Below are positions 16,433 to 22,170 of a stretch of 22,170 nt of DNA, piece after piece. Made by a program: the position numbers and the translations under genes. Position 1 is the first letter of the stretch; every line of letters starts with the position of its first letter. Source of the stretch: a virus (taxonomy: Duplodnaviria > Heunggongvirae > Uroviricota > Caudoviricetes); the IMG/VR virus record IMGVR_UViG_2740892282_000009; one strand, given 5' to 3'. The notes under the pieces are model-generated. The model did not search any database. It worked only from the letters and a program-made list of their open reading frames with translations, and was not told the origin of the DNA.

Positions 16433-17224
16433 TCATTTATCCCAAAGCGTCATAAGTTTACTCTTAATCTCATCCGTTATTGCTGAGTGATTCGACTTAT
16501 AGATGATTTTTAGTGCTTCAACGTTGTCGCCATTCTTGAATACTCTTCGCATTGAAGATGCCTTTGTTCTTGCAGTACTTTCCTTCCATTCTGGATGGTC
16601 AGTTACCATCTTTTCAACAAGATCAGTTGTGTTCATACCACTTTCAACATACTGATAGTACTCAATAAATGTCTGCATTCCTATTGTCTGTAGATCCCGG
16701 ATAGTGTTTGAATCTGGCTTCACCGTGATCTCTTCCTTTGAACGTTCAGTGTCTGGATCAATAAATTCAATGATGTCTGTTACACGTGGATCGTTAAGTA
16801 ATAAATTGCTGATTCTTAAAGTGTAACCATTCTGGTGCTCATTATAAAAACCATATTCCTTCACTAATTCATGTGGTATGGATACAGCATAACGAATTGA
16901 GAAATCATGGTTATATATTACGGCAATGAGCTCATCGAATTGGTTCAGATCATAATTTCTGATAATCCCAAGAATTAATGATTTGTTTTTTAAATTATTC
17001 TTACGAGACTTAATCTGAATTTTTCGATCATCAATCGTTGTAGCGTCATACCCTTTAGTACTAGGTGCAGCCAGTACCATTTGCATCTTATCCGCAACCA
17101 GCCATTCAGTGTACTCACTGATAGGATTGTTTCTGGTTCTGATAACCTCTCGTCGTTCTAACTCATCAAGCGTCAACTGATTCAGTTGCATCAATTCGAC
17201 GTTACTCAATTGTGATAAATCCAT
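16433..17224 (-). CDS. Hypothetical protein (263 aa), translationally coupled partner of the HNH nuclease
   Basis: Its ATG (17224-17222) abuts the stop of the upstream gene (TAA 17227-17225). Possible degenerate nuclease-like segment (GYDATTIDDRKIQIKSRK); otherwise unrecognised. Confidence 0.4.
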   Translation of the reverse strand: MDLSQLSNVELMQLNQLTLDELERREVIRTRNNPISEYTEWLVADKMQMVLAAPSTKGYDATTIDDRKIQIKSRKNNLKNKSLILGIIRNYDLNQFDELIAVIYNHDFSIRYAVSIPHELVKEYGFYNEHQNGYTLRISNLLLNDPRVTDIIEFIDPDTERSKEEITVKPDSNTIRDLQTIGMQTFIEYYQYVESGMNTTDLVEKMVTDHPEWKESTARTKASSMRRVFKNGDNVEALKIIYKSNHSAITDEIKSKLMTLWDK

Positions 17225-17953
17225 TTACTCGCTCCAAAAGGTCATTTTCTCTTTCAAGTCTGCAATTGAAAGTACTTTGCTCCCACGATGTACCATTGCA
17301 TGGCAATTTGGACATAATGGGACCATATCTGTTACGGGGTTGACCACATAGTTTTCCCCAATCGTATGAAGCGGCTTGATGTGATGTACATGAATGAATC
17401 CACGGCCATGTGTACCATAGACCTTCTCAAAATCGAAACCACAGCATTTACAGGTAGTACCGTGATGTTGGATGCAGGCTTGTCTGGCCTTTGGATCGCG
17501 TTCGTAGTAGTTCACTGTTACTTGAGTCTTTGCACCTTCAACAAAACTCTCTCCTGAAGGAATTTCATCAGGGAATGGATTAGGTAAGAAGTCTGCATAC
17601 CAAACAACGCCTTCTTTACGCAGATATCGCTTGTTTAATTTACGCTCAAAATCCTTGATAACTGCAATTTCAGGGTTATCCGGGTGTTCTGCGAAAACCA
17701 TATTGAAGGTGTAAAGTTCGTAGCCTTCATGGACTAACCTGACGTGTTCCAGTGCCTGGGTGTATCCCAGTTGTTTTTTGTTGTTTGAGTTGTACTCCCA
17801 ACGCTCTCGAAGAATGACTGACCGCTCTTGTTCACTCTCAACATCCCATGACCCAAAGATGACCATCTTCTTTTCATGGTTAACAAATGACCAACTCCAC
17901 GTCCAGTTACTGCAAGTAGCTCCGTGCGACTGGATGAATTGCTTCCGGTTCAT
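17225..17953 (-). CDS. McrA-like HNH nuclease with an unassigned N-terminal domain (242 aa)
   Basis: C-terminal HNH signature YERDPKARQACIQHHGTTCKCCGFDF...GFIHVHHIKPL...MVPLCPNCHAMVH, compared with E. coli McrA from memory. The Trp-rich N-terminal 150 aa (SNWTWSWSFVNHEKKMVIFGSWD...) may be a modified-base reader (EVE/SRA-like); this is a guess. Confidence 0.65.
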   Translation of the reverse strand: MNRKQFIQSHGATCSNWTWSWSFVNHEKKMVIFGSWDVESEQERSVILRERWEYNSNNKKQLGYTQALEHVRLVHEGYELYTFNMVFAEHPDNPEIAVIKDFERKLNKRYLRKEGVVWYADFLPNPFPDEIPSGESFVEGAKTQVTVNYYERDPKARQACIQHHGTTCKCCGFDFEKVYGTHGRGFIHVHHIKPLHTIGENYVVNPVTDMVPLCPNCHAMVHRGSKVLSIADLKEKMTFWSE

Positions 17954-18890: not shown

Positions 18891-18989
18891 ATAATTAATA
18901 CTTCAATATACGTATTTACAATGGCTTCATTAAAGTACTCATCTTTTGGTTCTCTTATGGTTATGTATTAAAAGTATCTTATCCCATCA

Positions 18990-19869
18990 CTATTTAACAC
19001 TACCATCATTCATAACCCATTTTTTCTTGCCCGACTGAAAATCCTCGACTATAGCTTTAATTTGTTCTGAAAAATCTATAATGGATGTACTAGCTATAGG
19101 TTCTCGATAAACGTAATCACAATGGTATTCTGTAATTTTAAATCGCACCTTACTATCTAAACCCTCGAGCCAACCATCATTGAATTTTTCAAAATATTCA
19201 CCAGGGCCATATTTCAGTTCTTTACTCAAACTGAAAATCCTGTTTGGTATATCATGTATAGTATATTTCACATTGTTTTGAACATCATTGATGAAGACCT
19301 CATTGTTCATCTTTCCTTTAAATATATTTTGGAAATCATCTTCTTTATAGTCGCTCTGAGAGTTAAACCATGCACCATCAACACGCACATTAAAATTTTT
19401 AATTTCTGGTAATGTCCGTGCAATTATATTCATATGAATTGTTTTTAACAATGGCTCACCATCTTCAGTAATCCAATCGGACTCTTGCTGACCACGTATA
19501 ACAAGCAACTGTATATTGTGCTGTTCAGCTTTTATCTTTGCACCACTCTGATATCCTGTCCGTGTAGCATAAATTAGCTTAAGACCTGGGATGTCTGAAG
19601 TTTTACCAATATATGCATCAATTTTTTTCAATAGATACTGGTGTTGAATAATCTTTACACTCTATCACTGATCTATAGATATTACCCCCTAACTCAAATT
19701 CCCAATAGATATCAAATTCCCTTTCAATACCTGAACGATCTTTAATCTTTTTATTCTTCTCAATGTTAATATTATTGAGGCTTGGTATATTCTCAGCTGC
19801 AATAAGTGACCGCTGGATATCCCGTACTAGTTCTTCATATTCCTTGCCTGAATTGTACATATGAATCAA
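18990..19869 (-). pseudogene. Mrr-like (PD-(D/E)xK, restriction-endonuclease-type) nuclease gene split by a frameshift in a 7-nt homopolymer
   Basis: The upstream ORF (19618-19869) carries EFDIYWEF...VIECKDY; the downstream ORF (18990-19631) continues with KLIYATRTGYQSGA, matching the Mrr catalytic-domain pattern as I recall it. The two frames overlap in the T7 run at 19622-19628 (A7 on the coding strand); the downstream frame has only a TTG start. Removing one nucleotide gives a continuous reading frame of about 295 aa. Confidence 0.55.
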
Positions 19870-20541
19870 TATCTCTAAACAGAATGTATTGCTAATAGTA
19901 CTCCAAATGCCTGTAATTGTTCAAGTATCAGATAAGCAACCTTACAGCTTAGATAGAAAGCTAAGACTGCTTCTGTTGTTCAAATTAATATATCTACTTG
20001 CAAGGAACGATTATGTAAATCGTATGCAACAATCTGGGTTCGGTCGATCCACGGTTCGCGGTTGGGACTGCGTGGGCAACTCACTAATAATTTGATCAAT
20101 TACTTTGCCAGTACTTAGAAAGTAATTATGTGAGGCTTTAACAGCCGAACGCCCCGACAAGGGAGTTTACGACCACGTAGTTACTCACGAATACTTACCA
20201 AATCACTTTGAGTTCTTCTTTTGTCAGTACTGTTACTTGTCTGAGCGAAAGCGAGTAAATCCCTTAGTTCTTTTCGAGTACTAGCGAGAAAAAACGCAAG
20301 GTTCGGTTTAATTTGTTTTTCAGTGACTATACGACCGCAGGGAGTGTAGGCACTCAAAGACCGATTTGGACGTAGTACAAGAGGTCTTAATAATTTCTAA
20401 TTATGGTGTCGAAATTCTGGGCAACCCATATACAGTGTGTTTTAACTCATATTGATACTATATCTAGTGCAAGCAACACTAATCAACCCCATAAAAACCA
20501 CATTTAACCTTAATTACGACATTTGAACCGTTATTAAAACA

Positions 20542-21066
20542 CTACTTAGAATGTCTTAATTCGGGATAAATTGTAGCTATAACCTTTAGTAGGTCTGCCT
20601 TAGTACAGCCACCATCTAAAGCCATACGTAGTTGATATGCTTCTTCACCAGTTAAGTACTGTGCTCCCTCTGGTGTATCACTTCTTACCGGCTTACCACT
20701 ACTTAGAATCGCATTCAGGCCTTCACATATAGCAATCGTGACCATCTTATAATCTCGTACTGAGGAATCGCCGTACTCATTGAGTGTAAAGGCATCAAAG
20801 TACTCGATATTGTTCTTTATCGCTTCATCTGTGATGTATCGAGTCGATGTAACCAGAAGTAGCATATTCTTGTTTGAGAAAGTCTTACGTTTCTTGTTCT
20901 TTTCAAAGTAACTTTTAACAGAGTTTGATATTACTCTACGTGCTTCATCTGTAAGTTGATTGAGATGGCGTACTCCCCTTAGATGATCTTGTAATTCTGC
21001 ATTATCGTGTTTTTTTGGTTTTCGTCCACGTTTCTTTATTTCATGCGGCTCTTTCTTTTTTGTCAT
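20542..21066 (-). CDS. Hypothetical protein with basic N-terminus (174 aa)
   Basis: Lys/Arg-rich N-terminus (MTKKKEPHEIKKRGRKPKK) suggests nucleic-acid binding. Directly downstream of the HNH homing-endonuclease-like gene; backbone composition (GTAC-rich). Confidence 0.4.
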   Translation of the reverse strand: MTKKKEPHEIKKRGRKPKKHDNAELQDHLRGVRHLNQLTDEARRVISNSVKSYFEKNKKRKTFSNKNMLLLVTSTRYITDEAIKNNIEYFDAFTLNEYGDSSVRDYKMVTIAICEGLNAILSSGKPVRSDTPEGAQYLTGEEAYQLRMALDGGCTKADLLKVIATIYPELRHSK

Positions 21067-21131
21067 AATAAATACCCCTATGATAGATGTTAATATTGGC
21101 CTGTAGTATTTCCAGTACTCAGGCCATTTCG

Positions 21132-21632
21132 TTATTTTGATTTTTGTAATAGTACCGCACTAAGTTTTGGAAATGCTTTATACTGCTGCGATATTTTATA
21201 GATATATGATTTACGCCCAACAACATAAGCAGCATGAGCTTCTTCTATCGTTGGGTATGTCCCAAACTTATGTACTTTCTTATCAAATGTTGCTTGTGCT
21301 TGATAGCCCTTATGATTAACGACAACACCGGTTGATAATGATGTTGGTACTTTACGGAACAATTGATTTACTTCTCTCGGTACAAAGATGCAGTTACTTG
21401 GGCTGTACTCATTACCTCCTAATATGTCTTTATCTAAATGCCAACCATCAACAACATTTTCAACATACCAATAATAAAAATCACTAAACCGATACCAGTC
21501 ATCGCAGATGGTAACAGTACTGTAATTGATGTTATTACGTACTCTTGAGTGAAAATTATTCCATACTCGTAGTGCTTGTTTTACATGTGGTAATTCCTGA
21601 CCCTTTAGGTCATTTCTTTTTTCCTTTTTCAT
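21132..21632 (-). CDS. HNH homing-endonuclease-like protein (HNH_3-type motif plus AP2-like DNA-binding region, 166 aa)
   Basis: WHLDKDILGGNEYSPSNCIFVPREVN fits the H-N-N pattern of phage HNH_3 endonucleases; the C-terminal GYQAQATFDKKVHKFGTYPTIEEAHAAY is AP2-like. ATG at 21632 with AAGGA 7 nt upstream. Confidence 0.6.
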   Translation of the reverse strand: MKKEKRNDLKGQELPHVKQALRVWNNFHSRVRNNINYSTVTICDDWYRFSDFYYWYVENVVDGWHLDKDILGGNEYSPSNCIFVPREVNQLFRKVPTSLSTGVVVNHKGYQAQATFDKKVHKFGTYPTIEEAHAAYVVGRKSYIYKISQQYKAFPKLSAVLLQKSK

Positions 21633-21650
21633 ATTTCATCCTTGAAACTA

Positions 21651-21671
21651 AGTACTTCATCCTGAAGTACT
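21651..21671. promoter_or_regulatory. Perfect inverted repeat AGTACTTCA-tcc-TGAAGTACT (operator or hairpin candidate)
   Basis: 9-bp arms with a 3-bp spacer, about 20 bp upstream of the HNH_3 start and 35 bp downstream of the small upstream ORF. The 3-nt loop is tight for an RNA hairpin, which favours a protein-binding site. Confidence 0.4.
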
Positions 21672-21705
21672 GTTAGTACCTTTCTAAAGTGAAAGTACCA
21701 AACCC

Positions 21706-21858
21706 TTACTTACTATCTAAAATCCCATATTGCTGTATCAGATACTGAATGGCTGAACTCATCGTTGTAGCCTTACCACACACTATAAGTGATTTTAGTA
21801 TTTCTTCTTGTGTAGGACTTAATCTCACCCCAACACTAATAGTTTTCTTTTCTTTCAT
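21706..21858 (-). CDS. Small ORF (50 aa), possible ribbon-helix-helix-type DNA-binding protein
   Basis: Not in the supplied ORF track (below its length cutoff). Hand translation: MKEKKTISVGVRLSPTQEEILKSLIVCGKATTMSSAIQYLIQQYGILDSK; AAGGA 6 nt upstream of the ATG. The pattern (basic N-terminus, VRLSPxxEExL..., ...SSAIQYL) resembles small RHH regulators or antitoxins. Confidence 0.35.
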   Translation of the reverse strand: MKEKKTISVGVRLSPTQEEILKSLIVCGKATTMSSAIQYLIQQYGILDSK

Positions 21859-22170
21859 AACATTCCTTTGTTTAACATTTTCCATTTTTTCTCAACGCAA
21901 AAAGATCCCCATGTTGGGGATTACTTTTTGATGTAGAATTATAATTATCACGTTGAGGTAGTGATCACCATAATATGGATTATACCATGTTATTTTTTAT
22001 CGTTCCAAAAACTTGATAACCATTTTATTTATGGTTGGAATTTTCAAAGGTAGTGCTAATACTGTTAGTAACATAAAAAAGATGCACAGTACTATCCAAC
22101 ATGGAAATAGTACGAACATATAGATTGCCGTAGCAATGATTTCAAAGATTATTTTGTATATCCAATTCAT

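Follow-up and report, generated by a model that had tools for sequence, protein, structure and literature searches.

A swappable nuclease-type cassette and its hairpin leader in the leftward early operon of a temperate Escherichia coli phage

The IMG/VR virus record IMGVR_UViG_2740892282_000009, assigned to the Caudoviricetes, provides a stretch of 22,170 nucleotides, here called the window, which towards its right end (positions 20542-21858) carries a cluster of four features: a small open reading frame (ORF) of 50 aa, a palindrome, a gene for a 166-aa nuclease-type protein, and a gene for a basic 174-aa protein. A sequence-only reading, made by a model from the letters and a list of ORFs, had placed these four on the minus strand, and all of them are found there; every feature described below lies on that strand unless the coordinates belong to another genome or the text concerns the wider prophage. 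The genes of the cluster follow one another in the leftward early operon of a temperate E. coli phage of about 24 kb with a large serine integrase, and they do not constitute a single dedicated module. The central gene occupies a slot whose content is exchanged between related prophages, in the manner of a homing-endonuclease-type cassette.

The setting of the window is given by the chromosome of E. coli AREA_C483 (L001 in our numbering of loci), which matches window positions 18900-22170 at 99.9% identity and where the window DNA is part of a prophage sitting between mipA and yeaG. There, a 644-aa large serine recombinase, the integrase, lies directly past the right end of the window. The gene set of the window is compact and siphovirus-like, with a small terminase, a GpA-type large terminase, a portal, a protease-capsid fusion, and tail proteins, and the structural genes are separated from the cluster by an island of accessory genes that includes methyl-directed restriction-like genes. 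No replication gene was recognised among the prophage proteins, and no sequenced phage isolate is close to the window at the DNA level.

The first gene of the operon is the small ORF (21706..21858), whose product is predicted to be a ribbon-helix-helix (RHH) protein. As proposed, it has a good ribosome-binding site, AAGGA, located 7 nt upstream; it had also been taken for a gene missed by the ORF track, and while the gene is real, it was already annotated in RefSeq, as WP_000660106.1 of AREA_C483. The start of the 50-aa version and its ribosome-binding site are kept in relatives, whereas a longer start giving 59 aa is not. Its family comprises 67 protein clusters across Enterobacterales, it is conserved in eight aligned lineages, and the ratio of non-synonymous to synonymous substitution rates (dN/dS) is ~0.2, so that the small ORF is a real gene under purifying selection.

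The 166-aa gene (21132..21632) encodes a protein with two recognisable parts. The C-terminal one is an AP2 DNA-binding domain (residues ~100-150, nt 21183-21335), well supported by the three-stranded sheet packed on a helix and the sequence similarity to AP2 domains that characterize AP2/ERF (PF00847). The N-terminal one is a divergent HNH-like domain, containing a motif (residues 63-92, nt 21357-21446) that resembles the His-Me finger fold of HNH nucleases and for which the AlphaFold model gives strands at 65-67 and 82-84 followed by a helix at 86-91. In the family of this protein the motif reads hLDKD..YSPxNCxFVPxxxN, where D67, K68, D69, and N89 are invariant and H65 is variable. The protein had been described as an HNH_3 endonuclease with an AP2-like tail; the tail is borne out, and the assignment to HNH_3 (PF13392) fails at the level of Pfam, where the protein had no match to this or any other family at E<0.1 and none of 31 homologues carries a precomputed HNH_3 domain. 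The catalytic His is not conserved. Distant relatives annotated as HNH endonucleases are present in 1047 phage records, at 1600 places and often in multiple copies, and in large lytic Vibrio phages they occur as stand-alone genes. With a dN/dS of 0.19, the 166-aa gene is under purifying selection, as are all three genes of the cluster.

The place of this gene in the operon is constant among relatives. In more than 20 loci, found in Raoultella, Kosakonia, Enterobacter, Mangrovibacter, Citrobacter, and IMG/VR contigs, the order that recurs is integrase, small ORF, nuclease-type gene, a gene of 155-174 aa from the family that we call C, to which the 174-aa gene belongs, and a gene-free gap of 0.5-1.1 kb. 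The slot between the small ORF and the C gene is filled by the AP2 type in about 15 loci, with identities of 30-99%, by a NUMOD4+HNH_3 type in at least nine (L012-15, L019, L021, L130, L139, and L140), and by a third HNH variant in L131. The NUMOD4+HNH_3 genes (I-HmuI-like, PF07463 + PF13392) take up exactly this slot in sister prophages; their size is similar, and a hairpin of the same kind, with GGA in its loop, precedes them. Contrary to the AP2 type, they retain the canonical DH..N..N active-site motif of HNH_3 (the occupant of L012 matches the Pfam family at E=1.1e-13) and have a helix-turn-helix (HTH)-like tail, and the two types are otherwise unrelated, save for a possible beta-beta-alpha motif. 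A common HNH ancestry of both cassette types was considered and found not significant: hhalign pairs the motif of the 166-aa protein with the DHID..N..N of the HNH_3-type proteins at E=0.39, a similarity that is no more than suggestive.

The exchange of one occupant for another can be followed to the base in two close relatives, L012 with the HNH_3 type and L027 with the AP2 type, which differ by the exact replacement of ~500 nt. On the left, they are 80.6% identical through the small ORF and the first hairpin of the spacer behind it (hairpin 1), and homology stops between this hairpin and the following one (hairpin 2). On the right, homology is back exactly at the stop codon, with 96.5% identity over 1359 nt. 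The unit that has been swapped thus extends from hairpin 2 over the ribosome-binding site to the end of the ORF, and none of it is related between both loci. It had been suggested to look at whether the endonuclease gene adjoins conserved genes in related phages: it does, in a fixed slot with a replacement polymorphism of precise boundaries. In addition, the identity matrices of the small ORF, the nuclease-type gene, and the C gene are mutually discordant, and the slot is therefore a recombination boundary. Nuclease genes located at the boundaries of genetic exchange between phages are also described in a published study (PMC10448857). A GC-rich hairpin between the 166-aa and 174-aa genes (GGCCUG...CAGGCC, 21098..21125) is near-identical after AP2-type and HNH_3-type cassettes, and so belongs to the module of the 174-aa gene. 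A different kind of change is seen in E. coli 14EC007 (L002 6681-8317), whose sister prophage occupies the same site of insertion: an IS3 element truncates the 166-aa gene after ~12 codons, and the small ORF and both hairpins are retained.

Taken together, the swap, the mosaic boundary, and the relatives spread among phages amount to the behaviour of a homing-endonuclease-type cassette. The selfish free-standing endonuclease that the sequence-only reading offered as its default is accordingly the description that fits best, in view of the 1047 phage records, the multiple copies, and the slot swaps. The closest known counterparts would be the free-standing HNH-AP2 homing endonucleases of phages and cyanobacteria, noted for instance in the Xanthomonas phages Xp10, OP1, and Xop411 (PMC2248197). 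Like them, the 166-aa protein is small and has an AP2 domain C-terminal to an HNH-superfamily-like motif, and its gene is inserted between conserved genes and has widespread, multi-copy relatives in phages. Contrary to them, its N-terminal domain lacks a Pfam HNH_3 match and a conserved catalytic His, and its slot was never seen empty in this prophage family.

The gene that follows the slot encodes the 174-aa protein (20542..21066), rightly called basic before, with a pI of 9.5 and 10 K/R in its first 20 residues, and predicted to be all-helical. It belongs to the orphan family C, for which only 32 representatives were retrieved from 1.8 billion proteins. Save for two long multi-domain matches, these are 78-186 aa long, and they include the 155-aa type of L003 and L006. 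The protein presumably binds DNA, and its structure comparison gave no informative fold match. Just downstream of the gene there are iteron-like repeats (20400..20541), with TGTCGTAATTAAGG at 20508-20521 and an inverted copy, CCAGAATTTCGACA, at 20407-20420. Such repeats always come after the C gene and their sequence follows the type of C: TAATTCGGG-like with the 174-aa type, AACCGTA in L003, ATCGCAAGATG in L006, and ACGGCA in L018.

The repeats are followed by a conserved non-coding core of ~220 nt (20090..20310; …CTTGCGTTTTTTCTCG…TTACTCGCTTTCGCTCAGACA…GTGAGTAACTACGYGGTCGTAAACTCCCTTGT…), which is kept even between lineages that share less than 20-45% identity in the flanking proteins. Rfam scans of the core, by gathering threshold and by E-value, returned nothing relevant, and the possibility of a structured RNA was rejected after RNAalifold gave -5.6 kcal/mol with no covariation, so the core is treated as a DNA or primary-sequence element. 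A scan of genome contigs with a 21-nt degenerate pattern of the core retrieved mostly unrelated Saprospiraceae repeats, plus two useful loci. Both the repeats and the core lie in a gene-free stretch of 672 nt (19870-20541), for which the roles of origin, cos site, and late promoter region come into question.

The C gene, the iterons, and the core also travel on their own. In L016 and L017 (Citrobacter) and L089 (Dryocola), a tyrosine integrase is directly followed by a C homologue, iterons, and core, with neither small ORF nor nuclease-type gene and with no structural genes in view; the island of L016 additionally has a reverse transcriptase gene. These islands may be satellites of this phage family. 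Since this set occurs without the other two genes, the 174-aa protein is independent of the nuclease-type gene. Most likely, it would bind the adjacent, lineage-specific iterons, acting as an origin-binding or replication protein, as a packaging-site factor, or as a late-promoter factor or activator.

The spacer between the small ORF and the 166-aa gene is where the palindrome lies. Folding this spacer as RNA gives three hairpins (-20.9 kcal/mol, z=-3.0). Hairpin 1 of this leader (UUGGUACUUUC...GAAAGGUACUAA, 21673..21701), taken from the RNA fold, comes before the cassette breakpoint, towards the small ORF, and other lineages have hairpins of differing sequence at its position. Hairpin 2 (21651..21671) is the palindrome itself, confirmed as the perfect 9-bp inverted repeat that had been reported, AGTACTTCA-GGA-TGAAGTACT, with GGA as a 3-nt loop. 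The ribosome-binding region of the 166-aa gene (21633..21648) follows; it contains a further GGA (CAAGGAUG, 21639-21643), which lies ~20 nt downstream and is predicted to be part of a small loop. On its own, the repeat is only mildly unusual, as the window contains five perfect 9-bp repeats with a spacer of up to 10 nt versus 1.6 +/- 1.7 in simulations. Hairpin 2 nevertheless has no counterpart elsewhere in the window when a stem of 7 bp or more and a GGA in the loop are required, and it did not reappear in any of 2000 spacer shuffles.

To follow the conservation of this hairpin, base pairs were counted lineage by lineage in Python, since the MAFFT alignment lost the hairpin register. Every lineage having a spacer has a hairpin at this position. 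Among the first eight lineages there are six different perfect stems (AGUACUUCA, AAGUACUA, AGGCGAU, GUACUAAC, UUACUACA, and AGUACUAAC), all of them with a GGA loop and each with a shuffle P of 0.002 or less. More distant lineages have mostly imperfect versions with GGA still in the loop, so that this triplet is almost always there, in loops that read CA(A/C)GGA(U/A)(U/G). A second GGA is found 12-25 nt downstream, at the ribosome-binding site of the nuclease-type gene, which in relatives reads GGA(A/U)G.

This layout is that of leaders controlled by the global regulator CsrA. The high-affinity SELEX consensus of this protein is RUACARGGAUGU, in which the GGA is presented by the loop of a hairpin, and the ColE7 cel leader has two CsrA sites, the first in such a loop and the second at the ribosome-binding site (PMC2896534). 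At the sequence level, the combination of a loop GGA and a ribosome-binding-site GGA is present in all lineages with a spacer. As in the cel leader, the loop GGA of the window is placed between two cistrons, the second one overlaps the ribosome-binding site, and the gene under control is a potentially harmful one on a mobile element. The two differ in their stems and spacing, in the downstream gene, which here is of nuclease type and belongs to a prophage, and in that the CsrA sites of the window are predicted from sequence. The palindrome is thus probably an RNA hairpin that limits translation of the nuclease-type gene, putatively via the CsrA of the host. As in ColE7 cel, the leader hairpin would keep the synthesis of the nuclease low.

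Another reading had been proposed for the same arrangement, in which the small protein would be a regulator and the palindrome its operator. What can be said about the small protein is that it is probably an RHH DNA-binding protein. Three of its relatives have Pfam RHH_1 (PF01402) matches that are below threshold (E=0.008-0.04) and in the right register, some relatives are named Arc/MetJ-type RHH in JGI and nr, and by inspection the alignment has a strand-helix-helix pattern with a conserved G-K-A-x-T/N turn ahead of helix 2. The 50-aa protein of the window has no Pfam match and no PDB sequence match, a profile search of the PDB with the small protein retrieved no RHH structure, and hhalign comparisons to Arc and CopG, with both reference sequences entered by hand, were not significant. 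Its resemblance to the Arc/Mnt/CopG repressors consists of the size of ~50 aa, the predicted strand-helix-helix order, and the turn, and it departs from them in having no significant family match and no operator found.

Several observations speak against the palindrome being this operator. The stems vary by lineage, while L012 and L130/L021 share the stem GTACTAAC even though the predicted DNA-facing beta-strand residues of their small proteins differ; and the part that is conserved is the asymmetric GGA at the centre, whereas the operator of a symmetric dimer needs no conserved asymmetric centre. As the stem does not track the strand residues and the asymmetric centre is kept, we read the palindrome as an RNA element and not as an operator.

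The extended form of this proposal, with the small protein as repressor or antitoxin and the nuclease as a regulated toxin or exclusion effector, has on its side the conserved order of a small DNA-binding-type protein, an inverted repeat, and a nuclease, along with the fact that RHH proteins are often antitoxins and repressors. Even so, we consider it very improbable. PADLOC had no match for any of the three proteins, the 50-aa protein, by inspection, lacks the C-terminal tail of toxin-binding RHH antitoxins, the type of nuclease varies, and the 174-aa gene occurs alone in the tyrosine-integrase islands. Moreover, the small ORF is found with other partners. In L131, it abuts its neighbour with no inverted repeat, and in L129 (4001-6483, Pantoea) it lies ahead of an ORF of 102 aa and a gene for a 648-aa protein that has the Walker A (GCGKTT) and DEAH motifs; these two stand where the nuclease-type and 174-aa genes would be and may be an alternative replication module. 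The presence of the small ORF ahead of these non-nuclease genes argues for a general early-operon protein with no dedicated nuclease partner, which would regulate early transcription.

A further alternative keeps the palindrome acting as DNA, this time as an autoregulatory or target site of the nuclease itself, for which the autorepression of I-TevI is a precedent, or as a site of another phage protein that reads AGTACT. Both arms of the palindrome are copies of this hexamer, which is present 76 times in the window versus ~7 expected, about 10-fold (e.g., at 21651, 21666, 12250, and 12264). AGTACT is the top over-represented word at every length from 4 to 8 (CAGTACTG appears 14 times versus 0.3 expected), it occurs in all three reading frames, and its enrichment is specific among NGTACN words. 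It is also confined to the prophage (L001 1000-26000), being absent from 17 kb of E. coli chromosomal flank. The stems contain GTAC in most lineages, and hairpin 2 is inside the swapped cassette, as would suit a site that belongs to the nuclease.

We nevertheless regard this alternative as improbable. The stem of L009 is devoid of GTAC (AGGCGAT, a hairpin without AGTACT) and that of L019 reads UUACUACA; stems are similar in AP2-type and HNH_3-type cassettes (L027 versus L012); and a conserved asymmetric centre is unexpected at a dimer-binding site. The hexamer is, in addition, enriched 4-14 fold in all relatives (L003-L021), among them lineages that lack the AP2 protein, and also L016, the tyrosine-integrase island. 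In favour of a DNA site, it has to be kept in mind that CsrA binding is deduced from sequence, and that two-arm changes like those of an RNA stem would equally be expected of a palindrome that acts as DNA. L131, where the genes abut with neither spacer nor hairpin, likewise counts against a general role of the RNA hairpin.

As for the reader of AGTACT, three candidates were discarded with different firmness. SlmA is rejected, since the G at -1 needed by GTGAGTACTCAC is present in only six of the 76 sites. The AP2 protein is unlikely, because the enrichment persists with HNH_3 cassettes and in islands without both genes, and so is the small protein, as the enrichment extends to islands that do not have it and its predicted DNA-facing residues vary. 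The prophage encodes a DNA methyltransferase (L001 1519-2229, PHROG 3820). Our literature search found nothing on an enrichment of AGTACT, which is the most surprising feature of the window, even though it lies outside the cluster itself.

The overall explanation that we prefer is that of an early operon with the 166-aa gene as a homing-endonuclease-type cassette, under RNA-hairpin control, next to a separate 174-aa protein; we hold it to be right rather than wrong, if only by a little. The nuclease cassettes would spread, or be maintained, through gene conversion that the nuclease drives between related phages, a process that would account for the mosaic boundary at the slot. A selfish cassette covers the swap, this boundary, the behaviour of the family in other phages, and the tight translational control.

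What it leaves unexplained is the slot that is never empty and the missing catalytic His of the AP2 type. Classic homing endonuclease genes are sporadic in occurrence, whereas a slot without nuclease was not found in more than 20 serine-integrase loci, and AP2-type genes that have diverged down to 30-35% identity between loci are yet still in place. The position of the catalytic His is taken in the AP2 type by K68 or by the variable H65; together with the mismatch to Pfam HNH_3, this means that nuclease activity of the 166-aa protein is predicted from a distant resemblance. Finally, the lack of a recognisable replication gene and the P-loop/DEAH replacement in L129 suggest that the block could be a replication module.

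These same observations nourish the main competitor, in which the nuclease-type gene is co-opted or integral to the phage. It would be either part of a minimal replication-initiation module with the 174-aa protein and the iterons, where a nick primes host-driven replication, or an AP2-type DNA-binding regulator comparable to CasPR, derived from a homing endonuclease gene. The CasPR proteins (CapR + AP2) are repressors of Bacillota prophages in which both domains, including an AP2 domain of the homing-endonuclease kind, serve for sequence-specific DNA binding and repression and not for cleavage (bioRxiv preprint 10.64898/2026.02.23.707548). Like them, the 166-aa protein is a prophage protein that joins an AP2 domain to a second domain of a kind seen in homing endonucleases; the resemblance ends at the N-terminal domain, which is a different one and, with two Cys in the 166-aa protein, unlike the four-Cys zinc domain CapR. 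An integral function would agree with the slot being filled in every serine-integrase locus looked at, with dN/dS values of 0.19-0.29, with a non-conserved catalytic His, and with the absence of any other visible replication gene. It would also agree with the AP2-type gene diverging in step with the C gene (e.g., 35% versus 42% identity in L136), with the P-loop/DEAH protein of L129 substituting for both genes, and with tyrosine-integrase islands that have only C, iterons, and core, as expected of a satellite that relies on a helper.

Against an integral function, the occupants are interchangeable and have unrelated DNA-binding parts (AP2 versus NUMOD4/HTH) beside a near-identical C gene, iterons, and core, which is hard to square with a site-specific partner. 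The HNH_3-type occupants, moreover, retain a canonical DH..N..N active site, and we know of no replication initiator in which an HNH-like protein provides the nick. We see this competitor as unlikely, with a weight that still has to be reckoned with. A co-opted role of the nuclease, including the exclusion of related phages, is possible given the never-empty slot. In its most far-reaching form, this idea would make the HNH-like gene, together with the 174-aa protein, the iterons, and the core, all that a minimal temperate phage of 24 kb, devoid of canonical replication genes, needs for its replication and propagation: an interchangeable HNH-superfamily nickase and an iteron-binding orphan protein would start host-driven replication, the C-only tyrosine-integrase islands would be satellites exploiting the module, and AGTACT would be a DNA signal for a reading factor. 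This we offer as a speculation of low probability.

With the homing-endonuclease-type cassette as the preferred explanation, the main interpretation of the sequence-only reading holds in modified form, and the locus is largely ordinary, with some interesting twists. It represents a clean natural case of alternative nuclease cassettes in competition for a single slot of a temperate phage operon, the boundaries being precise to the base and lying on a mosaic junction. The cassette pair would lend itself to studies of the influence of homing endonuclease genes on the mosaicism of prophages in Enterobacterales. If the GGA-loop hairpin does bind CsrA, a global regulator of the host would control a phage nuclease gene; if, instead, the function is an integral one, the block would be a minimal replication module that has gone unrecognised.

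Upstream of the operon, the best promoter-like site of the region is of sigma-70 type (TTGGAA, 18 nt, TG-extended TATAAT; 21979..22008), a candidate from a consensus scan, with a match of 10/12. An intrinsic-terminator-like hairpin (ATCCCCA-ACA-TGGGGAT followed by a T-run; 21895..21921) is located just upstream of the small ORF, and relatives have an equivalent GC-rich hairpin with a T-run at the same place, with stems of different sequence. The succession of the promoter-like site (22008-21979) and, ~60 nt on, the terminator-like hairpin (21921-21895) recurs in L009 and L012, and could be an attenuator or a small RNA. A very hydrophobic 57-aa ORF, absent from the RefSeq annotation, spans 21997-22170 and starts exactly at the window end.

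On the other side of the cluster, beyond the gene-free stretch, a 289-aa Mrr-like (PD-(D/E)xK) gene is intact in AREA_C483 (L001 20091-20960). In the window (18990-19869), it is split by a single-base difference from AREA_C483 into two overlapping ORFs (18990-19631 and 19618-19869). Further into the accessory island, at 16433-17953, there is an adjoining pair formed by a methyl-directed restriction-like gene (PADLOC mREase_II, 1e-62) and a gene for an HNH (PF01844) protein, placed with early genes on one side and the terminase on the other. An HNH (PF01844) gene of similar size comes directly after the non-coding core in L003, L009, and L010.

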